Of a DNA stretch of 64,000 nucleotides, positions 221-49,668 are shown one piece after another. This DNA comes from an uncultured bacterium. GTDB lineage: Bacteria > CSSED10-310 > CAZUFC01. Made by a program: the position numbers and the translations under genes. Each line of letters begins with the position of its first letter. Position 1 is the first letter of the stretch. The stretch lies in the NCBI GenBank assembly GCA_964619725.1, contig CAZUFC010000024.1:1-64000 (forward strand), in the 5' to 3' direction. Under the pieces are notes generated by a model that saw only the letters and a list, made by a program, of their open reading frames with translations, did not search any database and was not told where the DNA came from.

Positions 221-2956
221 TCATTCGGAATAACCGAAATCCCAGACATCGATATTGCTCAGGATATTGATCATTTTGGAATCGGTAATAGTGGCCAGGA
301 ATTTCAGATTGTAGGCATCGCCGGCGTCGTCGGGCCAGGTGAATTCATTGAGGACGGGCAACACCGTTCTTCCGACGGGGAGTCCGAAGACGAAGTAATC
401 CAGGTGTTCGGGAAAATGCTCCCAGCTCGGCGCTGTCCAGTATTCGCCGTAGACGTCCAGAACCACGAATATCAGGACCCAGTTTATGGGGTCGTTTGGA
501 TTTCTTATGATTGCTTCCAGGCTGCAAATGTCTCCTGGAGTATAGTGATGTGAGGGCATACTCAGCGATATATTTAGTTGATTGACTTGCGGGGTGAATG
601 TCGGCGCAGCCGTTTCTGCGGGCGTTGGGGTTGCCGGAGTCTGCGTGCTGGTCGGAAAAGCGGTCGGCGATGGAGTTACGTATGAACAAGTGATTGAAAA
701 ATCGGTTTCGCTTTCGTCTTCTGCTCTGTTCCATGATGGATCGTAAACAGCGCACCTGATCCTGCAGGCATCCGAATTAAGGCAGGGAATGGTCCACTCG
801 TATGTTCCGTTATTCTGATGCCCACCTTTGACTACGATGGGCCAGGTCTCTCCGGCATCGGTTGAAAGGAAAATATCGGCATACAGAATGTGCTCGTTAT
901 CCGTCGCTTCCCAGGTTATTTCATATGTTTGTCCGGCTTCAAGCGATTCTCCTCCGTCAGGTTGAATCAACGTGATGTCGGGAATTTGTTCGTCTATCGG
1001 CATCCATTTCCATAAACCTGAATCGAAAGTTCCGGCGTAGAAGTTTTCCTCCTGGTTTTCCACTCTTAATGCGATCTGATTCAGGGTGGGAAAGGAGAGT
1101 CCTGAGCAGGACTGCTGCCAGGTCTGACCTGCGTCTTCACTGAACCACAGGCCTTCAGCGGCTGCATAGACGGTCCCGTCAACGGGAGAAACTTTTATTT
1201 CTAAAACATCTCCTTCTATTTCAGCGCCCAGACCTGTCGTCCATGTGTCGCCTCCGTCGTCCGTTCTGCAGAGATTCAATTGCGAAACCATCATGTAGTA
1301 GCGTCCGGGAAATGTCGGGTCTGCGGCCAGGGGATATCCGATATACTCGAGCGGATTCCAGGAATTACCGTAATCCGTGCTTCTGATCATGCTGTGTGTA
1401 GGTCCGTTGTAGACTCTGGCTATGATGAAAGCCGGATCGGAAGGGTCCACGGCCATACAGGCAACATTGTCCTGATGTTTCCGCACGAAATACTGCCCCG
1501 TATCTGAAGAAATCCAGATGCCGAATGTATCCGAATATTGATATAATCCGGCATAAACGTAATTCGGGTTATCCCGGCAGAATAAAACATCACCTAAACT
1601 GGCGCTGCCGCTGATATTGGTGGGATTCCAGGAATTTCCGCCGTCCGTGCTTCTGTATAAATCCTTCGCTCCGCCGAGAATTATGGATGGGTCCTCCGGA
1701 TGATACGCTGCGCTCTGAGAATATCCTCCTCCAATGCCGGTAATTTCGCTCCAGTTCAAACCGTAACTGTTGCTGAACGCTAACTTTCGGCGCTGACGGC
1801 TGCCTGCCAGAACCGTCCATTCATCCGACGGATGCAATTCAATCTCCGAAACTTTGGTGGCGCATAAATAACGATGACTTAACCGCCAATTTTCTCCTCC
1901 GTCTTCGGTGATTAATAGTCCGTCTTCGATCTTCCCGACGTAAACTCTGTTCGGGTCCGCAGGGTCGACAGCCAGGCAGCTTCCCATACCGGTGAATTGA
2001 GTCTCTGAATTTTCCCAATTTTCACCGCTGTCCGTACTTCGGAAAATAAGAGTGGGGTCCCAGTCATAGCTTCCGCCTGTGGCCCATAAAACGTCAGTAT
2101 TTGACGGGTCTGCTTTGATCCTGTTGATGGGCTCAGATAAAACCGTTTCCCAGGTGAACCCTTCGTCAGTGCTCTTTTTGATGCTCCCTTCCAGGTTCCA
2201 TCGCCGCCCCGAGAATATGGTCAAGTCGCCGTCATAAATCGCTTCAATACTCCTGGTCGATACATTCTTTGAATTCGCATAGGACTCTGCATCATAACTT
2301 CCCCTGTTCTCCCAGGTAAAACCGCCGTCCGTGCTGACTGATATCCCCGTATCGTTCGTTGCGGCATAGATGCGGTCCGGATCGTTGGGATGCGACGTAA
2401 ATTCATAGTAATCATCAGTGAAATCCAGTGGAGTCCAGGAATCGCCGGAGTCTGTAGAAAGAAAAAGTCCGGCCTTGCCTCCTAAAAGAAGCCGCTCATT
2501 ATGCGTTTCATGCACCCAGACATCGCATAACTCATCCGTAATGCCGCAGTAACTCCACGATCCGCCGCCGTCCGTGCTGCGATAGATGCTCGTCGCCGGG
2601 TCGCCCGTCACCCTGATTCCGCCGGTTACGTAAAAAACCGAAGGATTCATAGGCGCCTGGCGAATATTCCTTAAGGCTCCTTCATCCATTAATCCTTCGC
2701 CGCTCGGCATCCAGGTCTCTCCGCCGTTTACTGAACGGTTGACTCCTGTTTTCGTGCAGACCAATATGTGATTGTGATCGGCGGAATCAATGCAGATCGA
2801 TGTGCATCCTCCGCCGAAAGGTCCGTTCAGACATCGCCAACTGTAATCTTTTCTTTTCAATAAGTCCGGCGAGGCTTCCATTGCCTTTACAATGAAAAAT
2901 AAATGCGTGAACATGAAAAGCATCCCAATAAACAAATTTTTCCTGGAAATATTCAT
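221..2956 (-). CDS. Secreted BNR/Asp-box (VPS10/YCF48-like) beta-propeller protein with Ig-like domain, Pro/Thr linker and conserved C-terminal domain
   Basis: N-terminal signal peptide; many S-T-D-x-G-x-T/S-W Asp-box repeats; PTAFPTSTQTPATPTP linker; C-terminal LDVYGEYW...FTWP...FGYSE domain. Confidence 0.85.
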   Translation of the reverse strand: MNISRKNLFIGMLFMFTHLFFIVKAMEASPDLLKRKDYSWRCLNGPFGGGCTSICIDSADHNHILVCTKTGVNRSVNGGETWMPSGEGLMDEGALRNIRQAPMNPSVFYVTGGIRVTGDPATSIYRSTDGGGSWSYCGITDELCDVWVHETHNERLLLGGKAGLFLSTDSGDSWTPLDFTDDYYEFTSHPNDPDRIYAATNDTGISVSTDGGFTWENRGSYDAESYANSKNVSTRSIEAIYDGDLTIFSGRRWNLEGSIKKSTDEGFTWETVLSEPINRIKADPSNTDVLWATGGSYDWDPTLIFRSTDSGENWENSETQFTGMGSCLAVDPADPNRVYVGKIEDGLLITEDGGENWRLSHRYLCATKVSEIELHPSDEWTVLAGSRQRRKLAFSNSYGLNWSEITGIGGGYSQSAAYHPEDPSIILGGAKDLYRSTDGGNSWNPTNISGSASLGDVLFCRDNPNYVYAGLYQYSDTFGIWISSDTGQYFVRKHQDNVACMAVDPSDPAFIIARVYNGPTHSMIRSTDYGNSWNPLEYIGYPLAADPTFPGRYYMMVSQLNLCRTDDGGDTWTTGLGAEIEGDVLEIKVSPVDGTVYAAAEGLWFSEDAGQTWQQSCSGLSFPTLNQIALRVENQEENFYAGTFDSGLWKWMPIDEQIPDITLIQPDGGESLEAGQTYEITWEATDNEHILYADIFLSTDAGETWPIVVKGGHQNNGTYEWTIPCLNSDACRIRCAVYDPSWNRAEDESETDFSITCSYVTPSPTAFPTSTQTPATPTPAETAAPTFTPQVNQLNISLSMPSHHYTPGDICSLEAIIRNPNDPINWVLIFVVLDVYGEYWTAPSWEHFPEHLDYFVFGLPVGRTVLPVLNEFTWPDDAGDAYNLKFLATITDSKMINILSNIDVWDFGYSE

Positions 2957-3302
2957 GGTTGAACCTGCCCATTAATTTTGCCGATAAGAATTTTCTTGCC
3001 GGCTATGTTGAAATTCGTACATCGTTCCTCACGAAAAGGCATGCGATGAAAGTTTCAATGTCATGCCGGAGTTGCTGTTCGTTTTTAGTGATTTCATTGA
3101 AAATTATAAGAGGTGTGAGTTTCCTTTATCATGAGAGACAAGCGATTAATTTTTTCACTTGTCGATCAAGATAAATAGACCAGAAAAGGGAAAAAAAGTC
3201 AAAATGCAGGAACTGAAATTCCGTGGCTCTATTCTGAACGATGAAGTGGAATATATCCGGGGCGATTAGGATGGGATTGAGTTTGGGTAGGGGCTTGATT
3301 AT

Positions 3303-3387
3303 AAGGGACAAAGGGACAAAGGGACAAAGGGACAAAGGGACAAAGGGACCTAAGAGACCTAAGGGACCTAAGGGACAGAAGGGACGA
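3303..3387. repeat. Short tandem repeat tract (AAGGGACA x5, then 9-nt AAGGGACCT-like units x5)
   Basis: Directly visible 8-nt and then 9-nt periodicity. Confidence 0.9.
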
Positions 3388-4109: not shown

Positions 4110-7100
4110 TTATCGGACGATCATGTAGGGCCATGTTTTGATATTGCCGGTATGGTCTACGGCCTGAATTTCGACGACCAGTTGCAGGGGATTTACTCCG
4201 GGTCCGAAGGGGAGCGTCATGGTGTAGAGGTAGTCTCCTGCGGTCATATCGCCGTTGGTTCCTTCGTCGTTGAGTTCCAGTCCCAGGGGTTCGCCCTGGT
4301 AGGCTATTTCCAGTTTTTCCAGGTCTTCATCCAGAGAAATGGCCATGAGGATCATATTTCCGCCGTCCTCGCTGGTTATTCTTGTGGTCCAGTAACCTCC
4401 GACCAGGATATTGGGCGGTGTGAGGTCCACGGTAATGAAAACGGGAGGTTTGGGAGTTTCCGCATTGCCGAGTTCGTCGACGGCCCTGGATTGGACTTCG
4501 AACAATCCTTCCTGCAACTGCCAAACATAGGTCCACTGCACGCTGCCAGAGGCTTGTTCCCAGGTTTGACCTCCGTCCGTGGATATTTCAACGTACTGTA
4601 CGCCGGCGCCGTCGTCAGAGGCTGTTCCTTCAATGATGAATTCTTCTGTTCCGCCGATGGTTTGTCCGTCTTCCAGGTTTTGAATGTCGGATTCGGGAGG
4701 AATGTTGTCTATCAGCACTTCTACCGTGGTGATGTCCGTCTGGACATTCGTGGCTATATCGGTGGCTCTGGATGATATTGTGACCATGCCCTGGTCCGGG
4801 AGGTTCCACACGTAGGACCAGTTTTCCAAACCCTGGGCCATGCTCCAGGTATCGCCTCCGTCCACGCTTATTTCCACTTTTTCGAGTCCGCAACCTTGAT
4901 CCTGCGCAGTTCCGGCGACGGTATAGGTTTCGCCTCCGATGGCGTCGCCGTTCTGCGGATCTACGATATCGGAATCCGGGGGTATGAGGTCGACTTCAAC
5001 CTCTCTACCGGGTTGCGGAGTTTCAATATTACCGGCTATATCCGTCGCCCTGCTTTTCAGGATATAATTTCCGTCGCCGGGTATGGTCCACTGGTAGCTC
5101 CAGTTTTCGGTTCCTTCGGCCTCATGCCAGGTCGCGCCGTCGTCTACGCTGATCTCGACTGTTTCCACGCTGGTAAGAGCGTCGGAAGCGGTTCCTTCAA
5201 TGGTATAGACTCCACCGCCCACGCAGCCGTCTTCGCCGGGGTGTGTAATGATCGATTGAGGCGGCGTTCTGTCGATGGTGACGGTATGTTCTGCCGGCGT
5301 TTCGATATTGCCGGCACTGTCCGTGGCTTTTGTGTAAAGCGTTACAGCGCCTTCTTCGCCGGGAAGTGTCCACTGGAAGGACCAGTTTTCGGTTCCGTCT
5401 ACAGGAAGCCACGTCATTCCGTTATCCGTGCTGATCTCAACTGAGTCGACCCCTGTCAAGTTATCTTCGGCCGTTCCTGTTATCGTATACTGATCGCCGT
5501 TGAGGGCTCCGCCGTCCGGGGGGTCGGTTATCAACGACGTCGGAGCGGTATTGTCTACGAATACGCCAACGCTTTCGCCGGGCGTTTCCTCATTGCCTCC
5601 GAAATCGGTCGCACGGGAAATCAGTTCATACTCGCCGTCTTCGGGCAACGTCCATTCCAGGCTCCAGCTATCGGTTCCCGTCGCCTGCAGCCAGGTCTGT
5701 CCGCCGTCGTAGCTGACCTCAACGATTTCCACGCCGGCCACATTATCCGAAGCCGTTCCCGTAATCGTATAAGTCGTGCCGCTCAGGAAAGCGCCGTCTT
5801 CCGGATCGGCAATATCGGACGCCGGGGCTATCGTATCCACGGTCACATTTACTGCAGGACCGGGCGATGTTTCTTCATTCGTCGCATTATCCACCGCGCG
5901 TGAAAGAATATGGTATACACCGTCTTCGCCGAGTTCCCAGAGGTAAGACCAGGATTCAGCGCCTTGAGCCATGTCCCAGGTTACGCCGTTATCCACGCTG
6001 ACTTCAACGAAATCGACGCCGGCGACATCATCGGAAGCCGTTCCCATTATGGTGCAGGTTTCTCCGCCAATGTAACTTCCTTCAATCGGGTCGGTGACGG
6101 CCGATTCCGGGGGAACCTGGTCTACGGTTACCCTATGGCCGTCTTCGGGCAGTTCGGTCCAGCCCGCCAGATCGGTCGCCTTGGACAGGATAGTGTAAGT
6201 CCCGGATTCCGGAAGAGTCCATTCATAGGACCACTGCTCGGTTCCAACTGCCGGATTGAATGTCTGTCCGCCGTCCGTGCTTACTTCGATGTAGTCTATC
6301 CCGGAGCACTGCGGCGAATCGTTGGCGCTACCGGTTATGGTATAAACCTCTCCGCCGCCGACATATCCTTCGTGCGGAGGATTAATGACGACCGAACTGG
6401 GAAGAGTTTTGTCGACGCACACCGTGATGATATATGGTTCGCTTTCATTGGATGCGTTATCCCGGGCTTTGCAGGCGATATCATATTCGCCGGGATTGAA
6501 GGGGCTCCAGTTTATCTCCCAGGTCCCGCCGGGCAATTGCCGCGCTATGTTCCAACTGGGCGGCCAGGTATTGACGTTCGCAAAGTATACCTTGTATATT
6601 CCCGATTCCCCATCAGACATGGTTCCCTCAACCGTGAAAGCTTCACCCGCCAGTATCTGTCCCGGTTCAGGATAGGTTATCTCCGCTTCAGGATCGGTTT
6701 CATCCAGGTCAGAACCCACGGTAAACGTATACGTTTCATCCAGCGTGTTGGGAGGGGACCACCTGTCGGATGCCTGTACCCGCACTTCCACGGTCGATCC
6801 CGCATCGAAAACGGTTTCATTATCGTGAAAGACATGATAATACCTGTCTAGATAGATGGGATAAATATCATCGATACTTACGGGAGCGCCGTTTACTTCT
6901 ATGGACACCGTATCCGGGTCCACTCCGGTCATTTCATCCTTCACATTCATGTAAATATCCGCATTTCTGTAGACGTTTCCGGCACTTTTTGCGGGAAAAT
7001 TCTGAGCCGTATAGGGCGCCGCCGAATCGACCGATATGGGGAAGGAATACTCGTAGAGCATGTAATTTTCCTCGGTGGAAAAATCATAGGCTTCTGCGAT

Positions 7101-9410
7101 AACCGTAACTTCCGAACCGGGTTCAAAATTCTCGTCGGGGGTGTAGCGGATGGGAATTTTAAACCTGTTTCCGCCGACAATGACGTCATAGGGGGCAACA
7201 GGTTCGCCGTTTTCCACAATTTGTATTCCGTCGACCGTCACGTTAAGGGTCGAACGGTCAATGCCCGCTTCAATATCCTTGACCCTCAGGTAAACGTCCG
7301 TATCAGGCGCTGCGCCTTCGCCCGGCTCCGGACTGTATTGGTCCACAACGGGAGCTTCCGTATCTTCTATCGAACCGGTATAAAAATCGTAAATAATGTC
7401 TCCTTCATTAGGCGGGTCAGCCTGGTCCGCCAGGTGCATCTCAACAGTCTGTTCATTATTGGGATCGAAATTTTGCGCAGGGGAATACACTACGATATAC
7501 TGGGTCTGATCGCCGTCAACGTCTGTAATCGTCACAAGTCCGCCGGTCAAATCTTCGCCGTTTTCAACGATCAGAAGGTCGTTCACAGACATATCGAATT
7601 CATTTATATCTACGCCCGATGCCTGATCATAAAATTCCGTCTGTATCTTTGTGTTGATCGCCACATCCGTTTCATTCAGTCCGGGAATGAATACTCCGGC
7701 ATAGGGAGCATTCACGTCTTTCGTCGTAAACCAGTAGGCATCCTGCGTCATCACTGCAGGAGGATCGGACAGGTCCTGGGCGTCAACCGTCACGTAAACG
7801 GTTTGATTATCTCCAAACCCGACCAGCGACGAATAACGCAATTCATAATCTGCAGGGCTTCCGGTAATTTCCACTGAAGCCTCTTCGCCATTGACGGTCA
7901 TTAATATGGAAGATTCATCCACGCCGTTGCCCTCGTCGTTGACGTGAACCACCAGGTCAGTGCGCGGATCGACGCCTTCTTCATACCTTTCCGGGTCATG
8001 ACGGTCCGTGAACGGAGGGGCCGTGTCATGAGATACCGCAAATTCTTCCACCAGATTCCCGTCTTCGTTCGGCGGCGACGCATTATCCTGAGCCCTCACC
8101 GTAACGAAATACAACGTTTCCTCTTCCAATCCCTCCAGGTTGTAGACCCAGGTTCCGCCTCTGTATTCGGCATCTACGAATTCAAGTTTCGTCCCGGCTA
8201 TGGCAGGCGATGTCTGGCTGTAATAAACGTTGAAGGATACAGGCGGCGAAGATGCATCCGACGCTTCCTCCCATCGAATCCGTATGCTGGTATCGGATGA
8301 GCCTTCGGCTGATTGCACCCCGATCATATCATCCCAGACCGGCGGTTCGATATCTTCCGTAGTTCCCGTCGTAAAAGAAAAATTGTATGTCGTCATCGCA
8401 TTGGGAGGGTCCTGCGCATCGCTTGCATCAACCTGCACGTCCACAACCTGCATCGCAGAAAAAGGTAAATCAGGATTATACCGAATCAGGTAGCTTTCCG
8501 CATCGCCTCTGAATTGAACGTTTCCTCCCGTCTGGTCCTGTCCGTTCTGGACGATATAGGTCCCTTCAACCGTGATGTCTATGGACTGAAGGTCCAATCC
8601 TATGCCGACGTCGCTCAACAGAACAATGACAGCCGTGTTCATCGATACTCCGTCAGCCCCGTTTTCCGGCGCCGTTCCATCCACCGTCGGGGCAAGTAAA
8701 TCTATCGTCGTAAATTCAACCGTTTCCAGCATGTAATTGTAAGTGTCGTTATCACGAGCCCTTACGCTGACCCTCACTTCCTCGTAAGTGTTCCATCCGC
8801 CAGGCGGAGAATACTCCACAAAATAATGATAAGGAGGATCAATCTCACTTACTATGCCCGATACCTCCTCATCGTTCACCTGCAACTGCAACGAACTTAA
8901 ATCCACTCCATTCCCGTCATCTTTTAAATCAAAATATATGTCCGCATCCAGGGGAACTCCCGTCTCTCCGTCCGCTGGATAAAATCCCTCCGTATAAGGC
9001 GGCTCAGGGTCCCACAGAATATATTTCTCCTCCATATTGTCGTCTTCATTGGGAGGATCAGCCGAATCCAGCGCCCTGACGCCGAAATAATATTCGTTGT
9101 TCGGCGTAATAGCCGTTATTAACGTGGAATACTCATAATCGCCGCCCGGTTCCGGCTCCGATTCCAATAAAAAAGAACCGGCAAACGGCGGCGACGTCTC
9201 CGAATAATATATCTTGTAGACGACCGGAGGCGATTGAGTATCGGTCGCTCCGTTCCAGAATACCCTCACGCCCGTTTCTTCGCCCGCTAAGGCCCTTACG
9301 CCTTCCGTAAAATCCCATTCCGGCGGAGTCGTATCCTGTGCCCCTGCCGGCGCATATATCAGGAGACTTAATGCAAGCGACATGATGAATATTGTCGACG
9401 TCCGTTTCAT
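4110..9410 (-). CDS. Large secreted Ig/Fn3-repeat surface protein (2 Fn3-like, 6 SbsA/Big_5-like and 8 tandem ~95-aa Ig-like repeats, C-terminal choice-of-anchor-X-like domain)
   Basis: Signal peptide (…PAGA-Q); repeats D-x-x-P-P-x-S-x-I-x-x-P…GTASD…VEVSxDxGxTW…WSYxW…ATDxAGN; C-terminal LNDEGTNGDMTAGDYLYT motif; GGAGG RBS. Confidence 0.85.
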   Translation of the reverse strand: MKRTSTIFIMSLALSLLIYAPAGAQDTTPPEWDFTEGVRALAGEETGVRVFWNGATDTQSPPVVYKIYYSETSPPFAGSFLLESEPEPGGDYEYSTLITAITPNNEYYFGVRALDSADPPNEDDNMEEKYILWDPEPPYTEGFYPADGETGVPLDADIYFDLKDDGNGVDLSSLQLQVNDEEVSGIVSEIDPPYHYFVEYSPPGGWNTYEEVRVSVRARDNDTYNYMLETVEFTTIDLLAPTVDGTAPENGADGVSMNTAVIVLLSDVGIGLDLQSIDITVEGTYIVQNGQDQTGGNVQFRGDAESYLIRYNPDLPFSAMQVVDVQVDASDAQDPPNAMTTYNFSFTTGTTEDIEPPVWDDMIGVQSAEGSSDTSIRIRWEEASDASSPPVSFNVYYSQTSPAIAGTKLEFVDAEYRGGTWVYNLEGLEEETLYFVTVRAQDNASPPNEDGNLVEEFAVSHDTAPPFTDRHDPERYEEGVDPRTDLVVHVNDEGNGVDESSILMTVNGEEASVEITGSPADYELRYSSLVGFGDNQTVYVTVDAQDLSDPPAVMTQDAYWFTTKDVNAPYAGVFIPGLNETDVAINTKIQTEFYDQASGVDINEFDMSVNDLLIVENGEDLTGGLVTITDVDGDQTQYIVVYSPAQNFDPNNEQTVEMHLADQADPPNEGDIIYDFYTGSIEDTEAPVVDQYSPEPGEGAAPDTDVYLRVKDIEAGIDRSTLNVTVDGIQIVENGEPVAPYDVIVGGNRFKIPIRYTPDENFEPGSEVTVIAEAYDFSTEENYMLYEYSFPISVDSAAPYTAQNFPAKSAGNVYRNADIYMNVKDEMTGVDPDTVSIEVNGAPVSIDDIYPIYLDRYYHVFHDNETVFDAGSTVEVRVQASDRWSPPNTLDETYTFTVGSDLDETDPEAEITYPEPGQILAGEAFTVEGTMSDGESGIYKVYFANVNTWPPSWNIARQLPGGTWEINWSPFNPGEYDIACKARDNASNESEPYIITVCVDKTLPSSVVINPPHEGYVGGGEVYTITGSANDSPQCSGIDYIEVSTDGGQTFNPAVGTEQWSYEWTLPESGTYTILSKATDLAGWTELPEDGHRVTVDQVPPESAVTDPIEGSYIGGETCTIMGTASDDVAGVDFVEVSVDNGVTWDMAQGAESWSYLWELGEDGVYHILSRAVDNATNEETSPGPAVNVTVDTIAPASDIADPEDGAFLSGTTYTITGTASDNVAGVEIVEVSYDGGQTWLQATGTDSWSLEWTLPEDGEYELISRATDFGGNEETPGESVGVFVDNTAPTSLITDPPDGGALNGDQYTITGTAEDNLTGVDSVEISTDNGMTWLPVDGTENWSFQWTLPGEEGAVTLYTKATDSAGNIETPAEHTVTIDRTPPQSIITHPGEDGCVGGGVYTIEGTASDALTSVETVEISVDDGATWHEAEGTENWSYQWTIPGDGNYILKSRATDIAGNIETPQPGREVEVDLIPPDSDIVDPQNGDAIGGETYTVAGTAQDQGCGLEKVEISVDGGDTWSMAQGLENWSYVWNLPDQGMVTISSRATDIATNVQTDITTVEVLIDNIPPESDIQNLEDGQTIGGTEEFIIEGTASDDGAGVQYVEISTDGGQTWEQASGSVQWTYVWQLQEGLFEVQSRAVDELGNAETPKPPVFITVDLTPPNILVGGYWTTRITSEDGGNMILMAISLDEDLEKLEIAYQGEPLGLELNDEGTNGDMTAGDYLYTMTLPFGPGVNPLQLVVEIQAVDHTGNIKTWPYMIVR

Positions 9411-9723: not shown

Positions 9724-10149
9724 TCAGATGAAGTTGACGTAAACCGCGGCGTCGGCGTCTTCGACTACCGCTGTAACTTTAGACGTCGCCGTGGTGAAGG
9801 AGCTTCTTAATACGGCGTAAACCATTCCCTGGCCGTTTGTTAACGGTATGTCCACAGCCGTCCATTCCTGGTTTTCCTCGTCGTACTGATATTCCGTGAG
9901 GTCTCCTTCTGTTGCCGTCATTACTACGGAGACTCCGGACACAGGCTCGTCGTCTTTGTCTTCCACTATGACGGTGATGATGGATTCGCTTTCACCGTCT
10001 GCAGGAATGGTTTCAGGGAATGCAGACATAATAATGGTATAGTCGGAAATGGATGAGGGACCGGAATGATCATCCTCGCTTGGAGTGCATGCGTAGAGAA
10101 GCAGAAAGCCGAGACAGGCTGCGGTAAAAAGGGTTAATTTTGGTTTCAT
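9724..10149 (-). CDS. Lipoprotein with invasin/Big_1-type Ig-like domain
   Basis: Lipobox LYA-C; IPADGESESIITVIVEDKDDEPVSGVSVVMTATEG is typical of Big_1. Start set at MKPKL (10149). Confidence 0.75.
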   Translation of the reverse strand: MKPKLTLFTAACLGFLLLYACTPSEDDHSGPSSISDYTIIMSAFPETIPADGESESIITVIVEDKDDEPVSGVSVVMTATEGDLTEYQYDEENQEWTAVDIPLTNGQGMVYAVLRSSFTTATSKVTAVVEDADAAVYVNFI

Positions 10150-10153
10150 GTGA

Positions 10154-11803: not shown

Positions 11804-11917
11804 GGGGACTGCTCCTGGCGTGTCGGCACGCTTCCGCCGTTTCTTGAAAAGCCGTAAACTGTTATTTGGTTTCCTGTCGATAAATTCATCTTTACGTTCA
11901 TCACTGCGATCCTGAAT

Positions 11918-12472
11918 TCATTCGAATTTCCTGAAGGACAACAATTCCAGCAGACGTTCATCTCCCTTTTTATTCCTCAGCAGCGCCGCATCCTTCGATA
12001 TTTCCGCCACTTCAAACCCATCGATAAATTCTTTCTCATGTACCAGAACCCCGTTAATCACAGCCGATTTTTCAGTACTGCTGATAATTACTCCCTCCAG
12101 GTTGAAATTTTTCTCACTTGCATCGTCCGCAGTTTCCTCTTCATGCCTTTTTTCTTCGGTCATTCTCTTATCGTCGCCCGCAAAGGGATTTTGCAATTCT
12201 TCATCGATTTCCAGGAGTTCCGTTTTTTTCTCCCGTGAAAGGTCTCGAATCAAGGATGTGAGGTCCGACGATTTTGCCGGCGATTCTCCTGTATCGTTCT
12301 GCTGAAGAGATTTAGGCAATCGTATATTTTCGTTCGCGGTACCGCCGGGTATAAGGGATCGGCTCCTGTCCGGGGAACCGGAACCCGAAAATCCGAAATA
12401 GTAAACGTCATAAAGTATCACTAAAGCCAGAAGAAAGAATACGACAGCAATAAATGTCCTGTTTTTCAGCAA
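11918..12472 (-). CDS. MshK/GspB/PilP-like membrane-anchored accessory protein
   Basis: N-terminal TM; NPF motif followed by LEGVIISSTEKSAVINGVLVHEKEFIDGFEVAEI; position immediately before the secretin. Confidence 0.6.
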   Translation of the reverse strand: MLKNRTFIAVVFFLLALVILYDVYYFGFSGSGSPDRSRSLIPGGTANENIRLPKSLQQNDTGESPAKSSDLTSLIRDLSREKKTELLEIDEELQNPFAGDDKRMTEEKRHEEETADDASEKNFNLEGVIISSTEKSAVINGVLVHEKEFIDGFEVAEISKDAALLRNKKGDERLLELLSFRKFE

Positions 12473-12475
12473 AAT

Positions 12476-14631: not shown

Positions 14632-14660
14632 CTAACTCGTTAAGATTTTCTTTTGCCCGG

Positions 14661-18154: not shown

Positions 18155-18163
18155 AGGATTCGG

Positions 18164-38640: not shown

Positions 38641-38791
38641 ATGGAATAAGTCAGCGTCTTTCCGGGAAGTTCATGTAACCGGAATATCCGTTGACGGTCC
38701 GGCGCTTTTTAATGATGGGGAGCTTGCTCAAAAGGCAAGTCATAATATATATCCGAAGAGACAAAAGAAATATTTTATGATGGAGGAAAAG

Positions 38792-40975
<2,184 letters not shown>

Positions 40976-41013: not shown

Positions 41014-42336
41014 TCATACATCTAAATTTTCCAGGAATGCCGGCGTATATTTAAACGCTTTCTTATCCAGAAACTCGATCAAACGGTTCAACCGGTCTGA
41101 TTTTTCAATAACGGCATTATTCCTGTAAAGACACGTTCCCGGCAATATCTGTGCAGGATTGACCTGGGCTATTTTGGGTATGAAAGCTTGGTTGCGGCTT
41201 AAAAATTCGAGGGTTTCACAGAAGTTTTCCTCGCTTTCTCCGGGATAATCCGTTATCAGGCTGATTTCACAGTGCAACCCAGCCTGTTTCAATTTTTTCA
41301 GAAGTCCTGACGCTGTTTCTGAATCGAAGCCCTTGTTCATGAATTTTAACGTTCTGTCGGAGCCGCTTTCGAGTCCTATGAAAACGTTATAACAGCCGCT
41401 TTTTTTCATTTTTTGAAAGAGTTCCAGCGTCATATTCCTTCTAATCATCAACTGACCTTCCCATTTCAGTCGGATATCACGGCGTATTATAAGATCGCAG
41501 AAGCGTTCGAGTTTATCCGGATCGCCGTTTATCAGGGAATCGTGAAAAACAAAGTTTCTCGCATCATATTTTCGTTGCAGTCCCTCTATTTCTTCAATCA
41601 CATTTTCAGGCGTTCGCATACGGAAACGGGAAGAAAGCAGTCGTTCCGAACAAAAAGAACAGCGACGCAGACATCCTCGACTGAAAAGGATCGAAAATGT
41701 TTTCTGTTGCAGATAGTCCGACAAGGGGAAATCAAGGTATTGAGGATAGGGCGCATGATCGAGGTTTTTATGTTCCTGATGAGAAATGAAGCGTTGGTTC
41801 GCCTCTGATTTCAGTATCGCCTCAAGCGGCTTTTCTCCTTCGCCGGCGACGATGTGACTGATATGTTCGTAGGCCGCTAATGCTGATTCACTTTTATAAT
41901 CATTCGCATCGAAAAGTATTTGCGGTCCTCCGGCAATGATCTTTGCATTCCCGTTTTGCCTTTTCAAAGAATCGATTATCCTGAGAGAAGGTTTCCTGTT
42001 AGCGGCATAGATGCTGAAACAATAATGATTCGCATTGAATGCCGTCAATTCGTCTATCATTTCCTTTTTTCTATGTGCTAGTTCGGCCAGCGTCCAGTCG
42101 TAAACCTGCGTCATGGCCGGCTTTTTTGCTGACAGCCATAATTTTTGAATACATTTCGGCGCTTTTTTGAAGAACTCTATGTTCCAGTCGAAAACCTTAT
42201 AAGGAATTCCCGCGCTCAGAAGGGTAGATTCCAGAAAAGCCAGGCCCAATGGCGGACGCTGATGCCAGAAGGGCGGACAGAGAATAAGCGCTGCGGAAGG
42301 GTTCATTTTAAGCAACAAAACTTCCTTATGGTTCAA
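41014..42336 (-). CDS. B12-binding-domain radical SAM protein
   Basis: PPLGLAFL N-terminal region; SRGCLRRCSFC (CxxxCxxC); GLESGS motif. Start may be at MNPSAA (42306). Confidence 0.88.
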   Translation of the reverse strand: MNHKEVLLLKMNPSAALILCPPFWHQRPPLGLAFLESTLLSAGIPYKVFDWNIEFFKKAPKCIQKLWLSAKKPAMTQVYDWTLAELAHRKKEMIDELTAFNANHYCFSIYAANRKPSLRIIDSLKRQNGNAKIIAGGPQILFDANDYKSESALAAYEHISHIVAGEGEKPLEAILKSEANQRFISHQEHKNLDHAPYPQYLDFPLSDYLQQKTFSILFSRGCLRRCSFCSERLLSSRFRMRTPENVIEEIEGLQRKYDARNFVFHDSLINGDPDKLERFCDLIIRRDIRLKWEGQLMIRRNMTLELFQKMKKSGCYNVFIGLESGSDRTLKFMNKGFDSETASGLLKKLKQAGLHCEISLITDYPGESEENFCETLEFLSRNQAFIPKIAQVNPAQILPGTCLYRNNAVIEKSDRLNRLIEFLDKKAFKYTPAFLENLDV

Positions 42337-42483: not shown

Positions 42484-45400
42484 TTATTCATAACCGAAAC
42501 TGACGACATCGAATTCGCCGACAAGTATGCTGCTCTGGGGATGCAGGAATGCGCCCCAGAACTTCAATCCTTCGGCAGCCCCGACGTTTTCCGTGGGCCA
42601 GTCGAATTGAAGCCGGGTTTGATGGTCGTATTCGTAAGAGGGCAGTTCGACGAGGGCGCAATCCGGTTCGACGGACCAGTCGGGCCAGAACCAGTAGCTT
42701 CCGTAGACGTCAAGGATGATCCATTCGTCCAGTTCCATAGTTCCGTGAGGGTTCCAGCCGGTTCGGGTCAGGATGAATTCGTCTCCGGCATGAAAGGTTT
42801 CATGATTGAGGTTGAGGTTCATGACCACGTGGTCCGGGTGATCTTCCGGTGTTGAAGTAGGCGTGAGCGTCGAGGGCGGTTCCGGCGTGAAGGAAGGATA
42901 GAAGGTCGGAGTAGGCGTAGTTGGAGAGAAAGTGGGGTACATGGTAGCTGTGGGAGTAATGGGAGTATCGGTCGGGGTCCTGGTCGGCGAGCAGGTCGGT
43001 GTCGAAGTAGGGGTAAAGGTGGGTTCAGGGGTAGGCGTAAAGGGCGGAATTGTGGGCGTCGGAGGAATGCATTCGGATGTATAAGAGACCAGTACGTCAT
43101 CAATGTTCCATCCGCAGAACCGCCATCCTGAATCCGTGGGACCCATGCCCCAGCGTATCTTGACGTTGAAATGCCCTGCAGCCCATTGCGTCAGATCATA
43201 TTCGACGAATTCCCATTCTCCGCCGTTCATAGTGGTCGTATTTTCCCAGAATACATCCCAGGATGATCCGCCGTTGCTGCTGACCTCGATATAAGCGTGA
43301 TCGTAAGTAGGCTGTTCCACTCCCAGCCATCTCCAGAAAGAAAGATAAACCTGTTCCGCTCCTGAACAGTCAATTGCACCCGTGGTCATATAGCGCGTAT
43401 TGTACATGTTGTTGGGATAATCCCCGTTCAGATTGTAGCCGCATACGTTATTGCCCGTGTAACCGCTCGTTGGATCAGGTTCGCCGTAATCACCGCCGTT
43501 GCCCGTGGGTTGCCCCCAGTCCCAGTCGCCGTCCATGGACCATCCCGGATTCATATTCATGTCCTGCCAGAGGATAACATGAAGCTCAAGCGTGGTAAAA
43601 TCGTAATAATATCCGTCATTGTCATCGACGATCATGTTGCCTGCAGCGTCAGAGGACTGAACTTCAAAATAATAGACCGAACAGTCATCGAGGCCGTTCA
43701 ATACCGCCTGGTGTTCCTCGACGTCGAATTCGTCAAAATACAGGATGGAAGGAGGATATGTCGTCCCGTATCGAACGACGGTATCGGCAGGTTCATCGGT
43801 TGTCCAGGAAATAATCGCTCTTTCGTGCGAGACATCCTCTACCGTCACATTGGAAATGGCCGGAGCAACGCAATCGACCTGCGCCGTCATTTCCACCGGT
43901 TGCGGTTCGCCCTGACAATCCGCATCTTCGTAAAGCACATAAACCAGGTCGCCGTGAGTCACCTGGACCGTTCCCGGTGAAGAATAGGCGGACAATGCCG
44001 CTGTTCCTTCGAAAGTCCCCGTATTCGCTCCCGTTTCGGTTAATGTGAAATACTCGCCCGAAGGATCGGTATCACTGGTCACTGAAACTTGCGCTGTTTC
44101 AAACTCCATGGGATTCGCGTTCAAGTCCTGGTCAATCAGATTGATCCCGATTTCCGATTCGCAGCCGTATTTCGTGCTGTCTAGCGTTAAAAAACCGCAG
44201 CCGGGAATGATATGAGTCGTCACTACGGCATCCAGGTCGAAACCGGGGTCCGGAGCGCTTGATGAACCGTCGCCGTCATCGACGATTTTTACGTAACGGG
44301 CCGTTTCCAGTCCTGTGCCGTAAATGTCGAATGAAGATGTTCCCGTTCCGGAACCCACCGATTGCCAGGGACCTCGCCAATCATTACCCACATAAACATC
44401 GTATCCTTCCTCCGTCCCCGTCGCTTCGTGAATTGTGAAGTCATCATCTTCACTGTCCCAGATTTCCGTTCCTGCTCCCATGTCGAGAACAATGTATCCG
44501 TCCACGCCGATTGAATAATAATAATCGTCGGGCGGTCCCAATGCCTCGAATGTCAACGTCTCGTTCGTATCTCCGTAACTCGTGTCATTGCATATTATCG
44601 TCCGGTAAGCATAGCCGTCCGCTGCCGCCGTCAATTCCACGTCTAGCTCAGCGACCTCTCCGTTGACCACCATTACGCCGCCTATCGTCTGCAGCTCATA
44701 ATCATTGGCCCATATCTGAACAGTATATGTCCCCGCCCTCAGATACTTATGATAATCGCCCAGCGACGGATCGCCGTATCCTATGTCGCGTAATCCGACA
44801 TACATCCCTTCTACGCGAATTACCGCAGGAACAGGCTCACCTGTGGCGGCATCGGTTACCATGCCCTGGAGTCCATATCCGGCCTCTTCTATCATGAATA
44901 ATGATGCCTCACGGTTCCGTTCAAAATATCCATCAATCTGAGATGCCGGCGGCGTCTTCGTATAAGATATTTCCACACATTGACCCAAAGCCCCGTTTAT
45001 GCCCAGATCATAATCCATCGAACCGCCGTTCACTTGGTAAAGAACATGGCCGCATTGCCCGCCTGTATATGAGGACAATGCCGAATATTCATTCTGAACA
45101 TACTCATGCTCAAGATAATTCGGAGCACGGTCGTTCGTATAACACCACGAATACAGAAACATCTCCGTCCCTGAATGATACGTCATCGACATCGAATAAG
45201 GACGCGCCAGAATATATTCCGCCATCGCCTGCGTTTCCGGCTGCGATAACGGGGAAGGACTGCCGCCGTCTCCGTTCCATTGATATCCATAGTCGCGGTT
45301 GCAATCAACATAATTGGCGTTGTAACGCATCCCCATCTCCATGCCGTCAGGATTCACGCACGGCAATATCCAGATTTCCCGCGTATTCACCAGCTCGGTT

Positions 45401-45996
45401 ATTAAAGGGTCTGTCCCATAACCTTCCACCAACAACTCCGTCAATAGATAAGCTACTTCCTGTCCGATCTTTTCATCTCCATGGATGTTGCCGTCGAATC
45501 GTATCTCAGCCTCATTTTCATTCGCAGACACATTATCCGAAATTTTCATCAACCATAAATCACGTCCCTGCACGCTCGTTCCCATCGACGACATGGCGCA
45601 TATGTCCGGATAATTCGTCGCCAATGCCTCAAGATCGCTCGTCAGCTCTGTGTAACTGTGATATTCAGACTTCTCTCCGTCCCCTATCGCTCGAATCCGC
45701 TCCCACTCCTGCTTTAAATCTGATACAACCACTCTCGCATCAAATCCGGCCGCCCTCAGTTCACTCAAACCTTCCTCGTCAACATCAGACAAAAAGTCAC
45801 CCGCTTCATTTATTCCTACTAAATATATCCCGTGCTTATACAATCCCTCCAACTCCGAAGGAACGTCTAAAGAAACAGCCACACGCATCGTAGGCGGCCA
45901 TCCGGCCCATGCCGCCGGGTTGTAAGTTACCGTAAAAAATATCGTTAATACCAATAAAATGAATATCCCGTTGCCGATCAGCCGATAAGTTTTCAT
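42484..45996 (-). CDS. Secreted M14 zinc carboxypeptidase with accessory Ig/Fn3 domains, Pro/Thr linker and conserved C-terminal domain
   Basis: Signal peptide; HGDE, NPDG, RYNANYVDCNRD, YHS M14 motifs; carboxypeptidase regulatory-like domain; PTPT linker; LDVYGSYWFWP…FGYE. Confidence 0.9.
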   Translation of the reverse strand: MKTYRLIGNGIFILLVLTIFFTVTYNPAAWAGWPPTMRVAVSLDVPSELEGLYKHGIYLVGINEAGDFLSDVDEEGLSELRAAGFDARVVVSDLKQEWERIRAIGDGEKSEYHSYTELTSDLEALATNYPDICAMSSMGTSVQGRDLWLMKISDNVSANENEAEIRFDGNIHGDEKIGQEVAYLLTELLVEGYGTDPLITELVNTREIWILPCVNPDGMEMGMRYNANYVDCNRDYGYQWNGDGGSPSPLSQPETQAMAEYILARPYSMSMTYHSGTEMFLYSWCYTNDRAPNYLEHEYVQNEYSALSSYTGGQCGHVLYQVNGGSMDYDLGINGALGQCVEISYTKTPPASQIDGYFERNREASLFMIEEAGYGLQGMVTDAATGEPVPAVIRVEGMYVGLRDIGYGDPSLGDYHKYLRAGTYTVQIWANDYELQTIGGVMVVNGEVAELDVELTAAADGYAYRTIICNDTSYGDTNETLTFEALGPPDDYYYSIGVDGYIVLDMGAGTEIWDSEDDDFTIHEATGTEEGYDVYVGNDWRGPWQSVGSGTGTSSFDIYGTGLETARYVKIVDDGDGSSSAPDPGFDLDAVVTTHIIPGCGFLTLDSTKYGCESEIGINLIDQDLNANPMEFETAQVSVTSDTDPSGEYFTLTETGANTGTFEGTAALSAYSSPGTVQVTHGDLVYVLYEDADCQGEPQPVEMTAQVDCVAPAISNVTVEDVSHERAIISWTTDEPADTVVRYGTTYPPSILYFDEFDVEEHQAVLNGLDDCSVYYFEVQSSDAAGNMIVDDNDGYYYDFTTLELHVILWQDMNMNPGWSMDGDWDWGQPTGNGGDYGEPDPTSGYTGNNVCGYNLNGDYPNNMYNTRYMTTGAIDCSGAEQVYLSFWRWLGVEQPTYDHAYIEVSSNGGSSWDVFWENTTTMNGGEWEFVEYDLTQWAAGHFNVKIRWGMGPTDSGWRFCGWNIDDVLVSYTSECIPPTPTIPPFTPTPEPTFTPTSTPTCSPTRTPTDTPITPTATMYPTFSPTTPTPTFYPSFTPEPPSTLTPTSTPEDHPDHVVMNLNLNHETFHAGDEFILTRTGWNPHGTMELDEWIILDVYGSYWFWPDWSVEPDCALVELPSYEYDHQTRLQFDWPTENVGAAEGLKFWGAFLHPQSSILVGEFDVVSFGYE

Positions 45997-46572: not shown

Positions 46573-47925
46573 TTATTGCCTGAATCCTGATTTATCGCCC
46601 CCTTCAGCATCTTCATCACTCAAAAACCATTCCCACGCCGGTATTATTTCTATCCTTAATTCATCCGCCCTTTCTTCCCTTTTCGCATCTCCGGTTATTA
46701 TTAATCCTCGCCGAAGTCCCAATTCCCTCATCCCTGAAACAAGCGCTCTTTTCTCTCGATCGTATGTTTCGATTCTGTCCATATTCAGACATACCTGAAT
46801 CAAATTCTTTTCCTCTCCTCTCTCCGTCAGAAAATCTATCTCATAACCGGCCTTCGTCTTATAATAACATAATGAATATCCTCGCCGCCTCAATTCAAGA
46901 AAAACCATGTTTTCCAATACTCGTCCCCTGTTTTTAGAAAGCTGTAAATTCAGATAATTATGCATTCCGTGATCGATTATATAGAACTTTTTCGGGTTTA
47001 CCTGGCGCCTTCTTTCTGACTCCGCACAAATATTCAACATAAATCCGAAATATATCTCCTCACAATATCCCGTAAATTCGCTTAATGTAGTCTTCGATAA
47101 TTTTATTCCTCGGGATTTGTAGTCCTTTTCCACTTTGCTCAAGCTGACCATCGAAGAAATATTGGACAACAACGTGTGCAGCCATTGGCGAAGCAATTCA
47201 TGATTCTTTATGCCGTATCGCTCCACCAGATCACGAAACATGATCGCATTGAAGTAATCCTGAAGCATCCTGACGCGCATCGAATCTTCCTGCATAAAAA
47301 CGATTTCCGGATATCCGCCCGACTCGAAATACGAATCGAATTCCGCTTTCAGCCGAAATCTCTTTTTTCCATAAATATCATCAGCCGTCCAGAATACGCC
47401 TGCTGCCGTTAAAATTTCCGAAAACGAAAAAGGCAACAATTCATACGTCAGCGTTCTCCCTCTTAAGGATGTCGCAATATCACGGCTCAAAAATTTGGAA
47501 TTAGACCCTGTTATGAATATTCTGTATCCCTGTTCGTTCAACCTTCTTACAAATTTATCCCAGTTTTCAATATTCTGAATTTCATCAAAAAAAAGAAATG
47601 GCTTTCGCTCCCGGTCATATAATTCAAAATAAGCTTCCAGGATTATCCCTAAATCTTCCGCTCTCAAAGGCAATATCCGTTCATCTTCAAAATTGATATG
47701 CAGAATATCCGTGATCTTCCCATTCCCGGACAGCAACCTTTTCATCATCTGAAAAGAAAAAAAAGTCTTACCGGCTCTTCTCGGTCCGACAACGGTTATT
47801 ATTTTGTTTACCCGCGCATTAAAAAAATCGTAATCAATCTCTAATTCCCTCTCGACTAATTCAGGCAGACTTGCCTCATGAAACTCTTTTATGATTATTT
47901 TTATTTTTTCTTTTAATGAAGCCAT
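46573..47925 (-). CDS. AAA_14 / DUF4143 ATP-binding protein
   Basis: GPRRAGKT Walker A; FFDEIQN; ITGSNS; GGYPE; KKFYIIDHG; LENMVFLEL…EIDF…LIQVC. Start at MASLKE with GGAG RBS. Confidence 0.9.
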   Translation of the reverse strand: MASLKEKIKIIIKEFHEASLPELVERELEIDYDFFNARVNKIITVVGPRRAGKTFFSFQMMKRLLSGNGKITDILHINFEDERILPLRAEDLGIILEAYFELYDRERKPFLFFDEIQNIENWDKFVRRLNEQGYRIFITGSNSKFLSRDIATSLRGRTLTYELLPFSFSEILTAAGVFWTADDIYGKKRFRLKAEFDSYFESGGYPEIVFMQEDSMRVRMLQDYFNAIMFRDLVERYGIKNHELLRQWLHTLLSNISSMVSLSKVEKDYKSRGIKLSKTTLSEFTGYCEEIYFGFMLNICAESERRRQVNPKKFYIIDHGMHNYLNLQLSKNRGRVLENMVFLELRRRGYSLCYYKTKAGYEIDFLTERGEEKNLIQVCLNMDRIETYDREKRALVSGMRELGLRRGLIITGDAKREERADELRIEIIPAWEWFLSDEDAEGGDKSGFRQ

Positions 47926-48339
47926 TAGGTTTCTCCTTTTTTGTTTTTTGCAAAAAACAAAAAACCTTATTTTTGAATTATAAGGCATCCAAGATTGTAA
48001 GATCAAATGATGCATTCGTCAATCCTGATTCCGTATCCAAAAACTGGGTTTGTCCGCCAGGCCGGCAAGAACCGCTGCGTCCTCTGTTTACCAATGTCGG
48101 GTCTTTCCGCCGTTCATTTTGATCATCATGAAAAATATCAGCGATTGACAGTCTCGCAGCGTCCCGGTAATTTGTTCGTATGAATCGGGTTTGCTTCTGA
48201 CCGCATATTTTAATGCGTTCACCAAGGTACAAGTAAATTCCTGTTCGGAAGGCTGAGGGGTTTGTGATCTGAAAGCGGAGGACTTTCCCGGATTTCGGGA
48301 CTGATAAAACCGGTGTTACACTTCATTCAAAACTTGTAA

Positions 48340-49668
48340 CCGTTTGTTTCAGTTTTTACTCCCCTTATCAGCGATTCCCCGGCCAAACTTCTGACGGTTC
48401 GAGTTTTGGTACAGGACGGCGCGGGAGGCGGCGCTACATCCAATTTTAACCTTAAAATCTGGGAGGATACCGGCGGACTTCAACCGGGAGCGCTCCTGCT
48501 GGACCGGCAGGTCTCTCTGGTAGCTCAAAACAGTTGGAACGACATCGATATATCTGCCGATAACATCATCGTCAGCAGCGGTTCTGTACGCGTAGGACTT
48601 GAATTTCACACGGACCCTCCGCCCAGTTTTTGTCGTGACGGCGATGGAAATATCCAATATCATCGTAATCTGATCAAGGCTGTCCCCGGCGGGTGGTTCT
48701 GGTCGGAATTTTTCGGGTTGCAGGGCGACTGGATTCTGCGGCTGCAGATCGACGGCAATTACGGAGCGCAAACCGCGACTCCCGCGCCGACCCGGACGCC
48801 GACAAAAACCCCGACAATGCCGGGACCGACGGCGACCTTTACACCGACTCAGCCGGGACCGACGGCCACTTTCACGCCCACGATGCCCGGAGTCACCTAT
48901 ACGCCGACATGGATGCCGACCACGACTATTACTCCTACTCAGTCGACTTCAGAAGGAACGATAGAGTGGGATGCCGGTCAGTACTTCGGACTGGATGCAC
49001 ACGCCAGGATAACCGTTACCGATCCGGACCTGGATATTGATCCCGGCGCTCAGCAGCAACTCGACGTCCGGGTATGGAGCGAGTCCGACCCGTATCCGTC
49101 GGGAATCAATGTGACTCTTTACGAAACGGGCCTGTCCAGCGATACCTTCCAGTCGGTCTACCCCCATGTGAGTTTCTCAGAGACCGCCGGCGACGACGAC
49201 GAGGATATGATATTTGTCGAAGATGGAGACCTTGTCTATGCAAGATACATAGATGAGAATCCGGTTGGAGAAAGGATCGCTTCGGCGCAATGGTTCGCAT
49301 CGCAAGGCATCACGCTGGAACTCGTCATGCCCGATGATCGCTTCGGCGACGGTGAACTGTGTTACCTGAATATGAATTTTACCAATTCCGGAGACACCCA
49401 GGAAGTGGACCTCTACGCGCTGCTCAACGTTTTCGGCGATTACTTCTGTTACCCCAGTTGGCAAAACATCAACCTTGGATTGGACCATGACGACATGTTC
49501 GTTCCCGCAGATTACCAGGGAACCCTGGAACTGATTGAAGAATTCGCCATGCCGCCCGTGGACCCGGTTGGACCCCTGTTTTTCCACGCCGCCATGTTTC
49601 AGGACGGTCAACTCACCCTGGAAACACTGGCCGCCGATCCCGATTCATTCGAGTTCTATCTGGAGTAG
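48340..49668 (+). pseudogene. Apparently 5'-truncated remnant of a secreted Pro/Thr-linker protein with the conserved C-terminal domain
   Basis: The frame is open from the TAA at 48337-39 with no ATG, RBS or signal peptide near its 5' end; it begins mid-domain (FVSVFTPLISDSPAKLLTVRV…); the C-terminal domain is homologous to those of 221-2956 and 42484-45996. Confidence 0.6.

Follow-up and report, generated by a model that had tools for sequence, protein, structure and literature searches.

Shared C-terminal tags have been the first sign of whole protein-sorting pathways, as with sortase and LPXTG, exosortase and PEP-CTERM, and the type IX secretion system (T9SS) and its C-terminal domains. 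The PEP-CTERM tails and their IPTL-CTERM kin are signals of ~30 residues, composed of a motif, a helix, and a basic end, that are processed in the membrane. Both dockerins, which are calcium-binding repeats, and SLH domains are helical. Here we describe a C-terminal domain (CTD) that ends three otherwise different proteins encoded in a 64,000-nucleotide stretch of DNA (the window; contig CAZUFC010000024.1, assembly GCA_964619725.1) from an uncultured bacterium of the phylum CSSED10-310. The CTD is a previously undescribed domain, and because it ends exported proteins, where other bacteria carry a secretion or anchoring signal, it suggests a route of sorting to the cell surface that has yet to be described.

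The first of the three proteins is a BNR/Sortilin-type propeller protein of 911 aa (221-2956, minus strand), which matches Pfam Sortilin-Vps10 (E = 4.7e-35) and BNR as well as the NCBIfam F510_1955 family glycosylhydrolase (E = 4.1e-53). Its CTD lies at 224-595 on the minus strand (29-copy profile, E = 1.3e-43, match at 227-595), with 0 residues between the end of the domain and the stop, and is directly preceded on the same strand by a Pro/Thr-rich linker of ~27 residues (599-680; VTPSPTAFPTSTQTPATPTPAETAAPT). The second, an M14 zinc carboxypeptidase of 1170 aa (42484-45996, minus strand; Pfam Peptidase_M14, E = 9.6e-51), carries its CTD at 42487-42846 on the minus strand (29-copy profile, E = 2.6e-39), again directly behind a Pro/Thr-rich linker, here of ~79 aa (42832-43068, minus strand; IPPTPTIPPFTPTPEPTFTPTSTPT...TLTPTSTPEDHPD). 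By inspection, the N-termini of both proteins (MNISRKNLFIGMLFMFTHLFFIVKAMEA at ~2873-2956 for the BNR protein and MKTYRLIGNGIFILLVLTIFFTVTYNPAAWA at ~45904-45996 for the M14 protein) are signal-peptide-like, in that basic residues come first and a hydrophobic stretch next. The third gene is a 5'-truncated remnant on the plus strand (48340-49668), whose stop-to-stop frame begins at 48340 and whose open reading frame (ORF) of 420 aa starts from a TTG at 48406. Its product lacks a signal peptide and matches no Pfam or NCBIfam family; its CTD, recognized by alignment and by an iterated profile (E = 2.3e-23), occupies 49291-49665 on the plus strand and reaches the stop. Unlike in the BNR and M14 proteins, its Pro/Thr run lies further upstream of the CTD, within the protein at ~48775-48960.

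Over their last ~120 residues the three tails can be aligned with 18 invariant columns. Because pairwise BLASTP gave E values of 7e-10 (BNR versus M14), 2e-10 (third versus BNR), and 1e-6 (third versus M14), we conclude that the tails are homologous and that a chance resemblance is excluded. The original prediction, made from the letters of the window without database searches, had placed three ORFs with a common tail at these positions, two of them with signal peptides and with Pro/Thr linkers directly before the domain, and all of these features were found: the linkers are visible in the translations and the N-termini are as described above.

AlphaFold2 modeled the M14 tail (the first sequence of alignment A2) as eight strands with a predicted local distance difference test score (pLDDT) of 96.0 and a predicted template modeling score (pTM) of 0.86. 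The CTD is confidently predicted to be an autonomous immunoglobulin (Ig)-like beta-sandwich of eight strands and ~120 residues. A structure prediction had been proposed from the outset, and the comparison of the modeled fold returned generic matches only, among them a porphyran-binding carbohydrate-binding module (CBM) and the Wzt carbohydrate-binding domain. None of the three tails matched any Pfam family at E <= 1, including dockerin, SLH, CBM, and the pre-peptidase C-terminal (PPC) domain, or any NCBIfam model at E <= 10. A PDB sequence search with the tail gave a single chance match (E = 1.6), and the ESM Atlas returned unnamed clusters only. Thus, as the original prediction had supposed, no characterized family was recognized in Pfam, NCBIfam, or the PDB sequences. 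Literature searches on CSSED10-310, on Coatesbacteria secretion, on C-terminal sorting domains, and on T9SS in candidate phyla brought up no account of the domain, and the main text of PMC8248873 does not mention it.

In composition the CTD is strongly acidic: its median net charge is -13 per 115 residues, a value of -5 or less applies to 203 of 208 copies, and the last beta-strand of the tails is itself acidic (FGYE and similar). We rejected charge as a clue to the role of the domain because the cargo is very acidic too (median isoelectric point 4.3); the acidity of both may reflect a saline or alkaline habitat. Aromatic residues make up 17.4% of the CTD versus 11.6% of the cargo.

The source genome of the window is a 9.17-Mb assembly of 344 contigs (90.9% complete, 6.5% contamination), which we translated in six frames from stop to stop into 53,820 ORFs of at least 60 aa with guessed gene starts. 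A profile built from the three tails, a search suggested with the original prediction, matched at least 150 places, and one iteration of the profile (i-E <= 1e-3) extended the family to 228 copies. The consensus of 214 copies reads LxLxMP/LNxxxFxxGDxFxLxaxixNPG...vpLFvlLDVYGeYWFwPsWt...iDxxxxxLPxG...ileFtWPexaGxaxgLkFwaAlldp...llGeiDsveFGYe, followed by 0-3 residues to the end of the chain, and agrees with the tail motif read earlier from the window alone. The copies are spread over 126 of the 344 contigs, and 47 of 218 CTD genes have another CTD gene as immediate neighbor. CTD proteins have a median stop-to-stop frame of 726 aa (range 256-2016) and account for ~3.6% of the 6251 gene-like ORFs. 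A division into subtypes was rejected, since a tree of 208 copies contained no deep split.

The position of the domain is nearly always terminal. The distance from CTD to stop is 0-3 residues for 212 of the 228 copies, 4-10 for four, 11-30 for six, and more than 30 for six; among public domain-bearing proteins, the copy lies within 10 aa of the end in 199 of 206. The 12 genomic copies more than 10 residues from the end comprise four with short C-terminal extensions (11-31 residues), three fragments, and five that are truly non-terminal. Two of these five stand directly behind a signal peptide and are followed by an FGE-sulfatase domain (contig C153, E = 2e-39) or a 5'-nucleotidase domain (C40), and three are internal, one flanked by FGE-sulfatase domains (C179), one after a neprosin domain (C104), and one on C112. 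In five of the seven public non-terminal cases a second Pro/Thr linker and a further domain of ~100 residues follow. The strict C-terminal position originally proposed therefore has to be relaxed to a nearly constant one, with a few well-conserved copies that are N-terminal or internal. Non-terminal copies recur with FGE-sulfatase domains (C153:3829-6570 and C179:522-2942 in the source genome), and one public FGE-sulfatase-type protein (P0005) bears one internal and one terminal copy; the FGE-sulfatase fold is also that of the T9SS ring protein GldK/PorK.

The CTD was detected in 11 of the 14 genomes of phylum CSSED10-310. Ten of the 13 genomes other than the source contain 57 to at least 107 matches each, with up to 263 candidates at a first look; the three genomes without a match are 96, 87, and 93% complete. 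The few members named at source are hypothetical proteins of "candidate division CSSED10-310 bacterium", so that the link to this lineage, which the original prediction had suggested, is borne out by these few named relatives. Outside the phylum, 383 of 387 sampled genomes gave no match, and four (G053, G221, G371, and G057; loci L070-L085) gave weak ones (E = 1e-7 to 1e-10), with 4-20 matches per genome at E <= 0.01. Of the outlying copies inspected, 13 of 16 end within 10 residues of the end of the ORF, and the core motif vDlYvALexnGxlxfwPsW is kept. This outlying form is found, for example, on TlpA-like redoxins of ~300 aa, and at locus L076 it follows a signal peptide at the N-terminus. 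Three of the four genomes (G053, G221, and G371) belong to one family, the close protein relatives of which are named Candidatus Coatesbacteria, judging from few named proteins. The profile matched 2476 of 1.84 billion cluster representatives (E <= 1e-3), in keeping with a family that is restricted to few and small lineages.

The proteins that carry the CTD share a layout. In the 40 residues upstream of the domain, the content of proline, threonine, and serine has a median of 47.5% versus 19.5% in the rest of the protein, and it reaches at least 40% in 126 of 202 proteins. Using crude home-made heuristics for signal peptides and lipoboxes on stop-to-stop ORFs, we scored a signal-peptide-like start in 124-160 of 201 CTD ORFs (62-80%) compared to 875-1200 of 3784 other ORFs of at least 250 aa (23-32%), an enrichment in line with the proposed co-occurrence with signal peptides. 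Lipobox-like starts were not enriched (13 of 201 CTD ORFs and 154 of 3784 others), and lipoprotein cargo was rejected.

A Pfam scan of 54 public members (E <= 1e-8) revealed peptidases in 15 (five C25, four S8, three M6, and the rest M14, C13, and C11), Beta_helix or NosD in 10, FG-GAP in six, LTD in four, and no family in 18, with VWA, Kelch, cohesin, DJ-1, and FGE-sulfatase also represented. Further cargo types named in precomputed annotations are sialidase-type BNR, peptidyl-arginine deiminase, papain, and redoxin, and no Pfam family is common to the annotated CTD-bearing set. The cargo of the CTD is an extracellular, degradative, and adhesive repertoire. By sequence criteria, then, the CTD marks the exported degradative and adhesive proteome in most of CSSED10-310.

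What else stands at this place in related proteins is informative. In relatives of the BNR cargo from WOR-3, Bacteroidota, Cloacimonadota, and Balneolales, a T9SS type A sorting domain forms the end in all nine complete ORFs, over the curated cut-off in seven of them; a tenth relative ran off its locus and was left unscored. A scan of genome contigs, which fed this comparison, matched the BNR part only. The TlpA-like redoxins that bear the new CTD likewise have a counterpart with a T9SS CTD, the TlpA-like redoxin P0228. In a CTD-free genome of the same phylum (G001), which encodes 14 C25 peptidases, the C-terminus of eight of the 12 fetched ORFs consists of a VPTLS-like motif followed by a hydrophobic helix and then a basic tail. 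These tails are IPTL-CTERM-like, with one over the cut-off of TIGR04174. Among the 25 C25 peptidases of the source genome, 14 have the new CTD, six have a Pro/Thr linker and a transmembrane tail, three have a third shared tail, and two have neither, and a 284-aa paralogue of the third window protein likewise ends in a Pro/Thr linker and a transmembrane tail. Because paralogues and relatives carry different tails there, we regard the position behind the stalk as a slot for interchangeable sorting or anchoring devices, of which the new CTD is the commonest occupant in the source genome.

The transmembrane tails, with a motif of the [IV]P[TAV] type, were seen at loci L056-L066 of G001 and on contigs C5, C11, C232, C39, C1, C92, and C109 of the source genome, where giant ORFs of 2576-4272 aa also have weak matches at their ends. 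In G001 the tail model gave 11 matches, of which seven are training rows. One exosortase gene of the source genome (contig C134) is over the cut-off and is relevant to the transmembrane tails, not to the CTD. Also in G001, ORFs with Cys-rich C-termini come after two of the C25 peptidase ORFs that were fetched.

Because the T9SS is the system nearest in kind, its components were sought with profiles. None of the 14 genomes of the phylum and none of the four outlying ones gave a match to SprA_N, and the same search was positive, once each, in both control genomes, whose BNR proteins carry T9SS CTDs. Searches run without a positive control did not find SprA with the long TIGR04189 model, gave a best score for PorV in the source genome of 17.5 bits versus a cut-off of 250, and yielded no match for GldM in that genome. 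TIGR04183, the model of the T9SS CTD, matched nothing in the source genome or in five genomes of the phylum, and hhalign of the new CTD with eight true T9SS CTDs returned a probability of 0.2%. On the absence of profile matches, the hhalign result, and the failure to find SprA_N, we rejected the reading of the CTD as a disguised T9SS CTD.

We conclude that the CTD probably serves, in one way or another, as a tag for sorting to the cell surface or anchoring there. The terminal position, the lack of a known family, the exported cargo, and the sorting slot all agree with the lineage-specific export or anchoring tag first proposed from the window; the secretin that had been named as its reader and the strictness of its terminal position did not hold up. 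As to what the tag does, we tentatively favor, at a little less than an even chance, retention or anchoring over translocation as its primary role, because conserved copies occur at N-terminal and internal positions and because the alternative occupants of the slot in this phylum are membrane anchors. Copies so placed suit a binding or anchoring module more than a signal that can be read only at a free C-terminus. Proteins would cross the inner membrane by way of Sec, with ordinary non-lipoprotein signal peptides, as judged from sequence heuristics only. The extended Pro/Thr-rich stalk, itself observed, would hold the cargo away from the tail, and one common receptor of the cell envelope would recognize the folded tail as a unit, so that very different cargoes would share one fate. 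The CTD would then bind non-covalently to a component of the outer membrane or surface, either protein or glycan, and thereby retain the enzymes on the cell, the outer membrane having presumably been crossed beforehand by type II secretion or another route. In its manner of action the CTD would thus resemble the T9SS CTD, the IPTL/PEP-CTERM tails, and SLH domains, although it belongs to none of them.

Several observations weigh against retention as the primary role. A terminal position in 93-97% of copies is what a translocation signal would show and is stricter than usual for binding modules, and its nearest counterpart in this slot, the T9SS CTD, acts primarily as a translocation signal. Mutual exclusion between transmembrane tails and the CTD was considered and rejected, since weak matches to the model of the VPTLS/IPTL tails occur in nine of the 11 CTD-bearing genomes. 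The signal-peptide heuristic also scores 23-32% of other ORFs as positive. In addition, no receptor, translocon, or processing enzyme was found in comparisons of neighborhoods, secretins, and barrels: clustering of 633 neighbor genes of CTD genes gave no recurrent partner, and secretins and FadL-family barrels are present in 14 of 14 genomes, with or without the CTD, so that FadL/PorV-like barrels carry no signal as partners.

The neighbor families considered were collagen-like proteins (with shadow ORFs), giant repeat proteins, sigma-54 activators, STAND/NACHT proteins, TonB-dependent receptors, sulfatases, glycosyltransferases, and AAA_14 ATPases, none of them convincing. Collagen-like ORFs lie within two genes of a CTD gene in 13 of 63 cases versus ~9 expected, which is not a clear enrichment; the source genome has 63 ORFs with at least 20 GXX repeats, and two adjacent collagen-triple-helix proteins of the window (36325-38640 and 38777-40975, both plus strand) end in Peptidase_S74, the endosialidase chaperone. 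TonB-dependent receptors adjoin CTD genes at four places (C145:7899-10094, C3:29950-32136, C125:15613-17676, and C225:2353-4623), an arrangement that recalls polymer-utilization loci, in which surface enzymes feed an outer-membrane importer.

The strongest alternative is that the CTD is an outer-membrane translocation signal, read by a lineage-specific translocon that would be a functional counterpart of the type IX system, and then cleaved off, the cargo perhaps becoming covalently joined to the surface. We consider this possible and yet rather doubtful. It stays strong because of the near-absolute terminal position (212 of 228 and 199 of 206 copies) and the parallel with the T9SS, whose CTD takes the same slot in nine of nine BNR relatives. 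The cargo (C25, S8, M6, beta-helix, FG-GAP, and LTD proteins) resembles that of the T9SS, the copies run to tens or hundreds per genome, and, with no T9SS found, another route must serve these large proteins. On the other hand, a candidate translocon was not found among neighbors, secretins, or barrels, the conserved copies at the N-terminus or between linkers would be unworkable for a signal read from the C-terminal end, and the sequence is unrelated to that of T9SS CTDs (hhalign probability 0.2%). On a more novel reading, to which we give a minority share of belief, the CTD would be the address label of an undescribed sorting system, CSSED10-310's own counterpart of type IX with an outer-membrane machine of its own. 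Such a system would move, and perhaps attach, 60 to more than 250 large proteins per cell, with Candidatus Coatesbacteria having a more distant form.

It seems unlikely that the CTD instead binds an external substrate, as a CBM or an adhesin does, and so targets enzymes to environmental particles or polymers. A Pro/Thr linker followed by a terminal beta-sandwich is the usual layout of an enzyme with a CBM, and the raised aromatic content (17.4% versus 11.6% in cargo), the porphyran-binding CBM and Wzt domain among the generic fold matches, the occasional flexibility of position, and the four TonB-dependent receptors beside CTD genes are all compatible with it. However, the cargo consists mainly of peptidases, adhesin-like repeats, and redoxins rather than glycoside hydrolases, a single external ligand for cargo so varied is hard to picture, the tail matches no CBM family, and paralogues and relatives carry cell-anchoring or sorting signals in the same slot. 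Very unlikely, in turn, is a folding aid or prodomain resembling PPC, which would keep enzymes inactive until export, then be removed, and have no sorting role. The CTD is indeed terminal on many secreted peptidases (15 of 54), and PPC domains are likewise small beta-sandwiches on secreted peptidases, but the CTD is found equally on beta-helix, FG-GAP, LTD, and BNR proteins and on TlpA-like redoxins, the long flexible linkers between cargo and CTD argue against intramolecular chaperoning, and Pfam PPC gave no match. Both the external-substrate module and the prodomain fit less well because the cargo is so broad.

Finally, the original suggestion that the tag is read by the secretin system at 10-15 kb of the window can be set aside as barely credible: some outer-membrane route is needed and the locus (10-27 kb) does hold a secretin, a PilO-like protein, a pseudopilin, a T2SSE ATPase, and two T2SSF genes, but its FHA-domain and Tad-like parts are typical of pilus systems, a close orthologue of its secretin is missing from the 13 other genomes of the phylum, including the 10 that bear the CTD (best 28-31% identity, over the secretin domain only), secretins of that likeness occur in 14 of 14 genomes, including the three without the CTD, so that the two do not co-distribute, and with CTD genes on 126 contigs, nearness to this secretin is expected by chance. 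The whole cluster (9724-27464) encodes an invasin-like Ig protein, the secretin, the PilO-like protein, the pseudopilin (349 aa), the T2SSE ATPase with an FHA domain, the two T2SSF proteins, two further FHA-domain proteins, and TPR proteins, and looks like a pilus or type II secretion-like cluster.

The third CTD gene of the window had been called a remnant, and this description proved apt. The N-terminal part of its ORF corresponds to residues 83-209 of the 284-aa paralogue (contig C5), which has a signal peptide, and a tblastn search in all frames found no trace of residues 1-82 of that paralogue upstream of the ORF. A divergent AAA_14/DUF4143 ATPase gene (46573-48015, minus strand) adjoins the 5' end where the truncation lies, and the source genome has at least four members of this ATPase family no more than two genes away from a CTD gene. 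The ATPase gene is possibly a mobile or defense-type gene that disrupted its neighbor. Elsewhere in the window, a gene for a B12-binding radical SAM protein (41014-42336, minus strand) lies directly downstream of the M14 gene on the same strand.

A second shared C-terminal module, of ~75 aa, was also observed, with the pattern vElyYdG-PTGv-L-DdG--gD--aGDG-f ... y-leI-A-D--Gn-s--WPYL-V(E) at the very end of the protein. It ends a 1766-aa Big_7 protein of the window (4110-9410, minus strand) that has a signal-peptide-like start, as well as three of the 25 C25 peptidases. A regular expression retrieved 16 ORFs, 15 with the motif in common (e.g., C70:1673-4955, C69:23975-27275, and C72:2240-5870, numbered along the strand of each ORF), and no Pfam family covers the WPYL-V tail. 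To judge by these sequences, the module may be a second lineage-specific tag.

The CTD matters first because of its scale: it is a tag on 3-4% of the genes of an uncultured diderm phylum in which the only known machinery for folded C-terminal domains was not found. It provides a ready-made catalogue of the surface and secreted proteome of CSSED10-310, its profile could give a name to ~2500 protein clusters that are now hypothetical, and it gives the search for a receptor or translocon a tangible starting point. If the receptor were a new outer-membrane machine, this would amount to a new secretion or attachment system.

How the CTD relates to described domains can now be stated more closely. 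Its fold scores against CARDB (PF07705) and generic Ig-like sandwiches, including the MG domains of complement and alpha-2-macroglobulin, the C-terminal barrels of transglutaminases, and the Ig-like domains of dextranases and of GH2 and GH3 enzymes, lie in the range common for unrelated sandwiches, there is no sequence-family match, and none of those families is a terminal tag. The PPC domain is likewise small and a beta-sandwich, and it stands C-terminally on peptidases that bacteria without a T9SS secrete; unlike PPC, the CTD has no match to the profile, sits on many proteins that are not peptidases, and is present in far more copies per genome. Dockerins, SLH domains, and CBM2-type modules are, like the CTD, mostly terminal and often placed behind a Pro/Thr linker, and they fasten many enzymes to one scaffold or polymer, whereas the CTD is all-beta in the model and has no Pfam match to any of them on the tail.

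The likeness to the T9SS CTD of type A (TIGR04183/Por_Secre_tail) is greater. Both are folded, all-beta, Ig-like domains at the extreme C-terminus of proteins with signal peptides, both mark tens to hundreds of cargoes of the same kinds per genome, and both occupy the same slot, as the BNR relatives show (9/9). Yet the new CTD is ~120 aa long with eight strands, as opposed to the 72 positions of the T9SS model, usually follows a Pro/Thr linker, is occasionally N-terminal or internal, and matches none of TIGR04183, TIGR04131, and Por_Secre_tail, with SprA, PorV, and GldM not found. Compared to the IPTL-CTERM and PEP-CTERM tails (TIGR04174 and kin), the CTD is a soluble, acidic beta-sandwich of 120 residues without a hydrophobic helix and without an NCBIfam match. 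Nevertheless, it shares with those tails the slot behind the Pro/Thr linker, the cargo families, and the phylum, and both presumably serve to fix exported proteins to the envelope.

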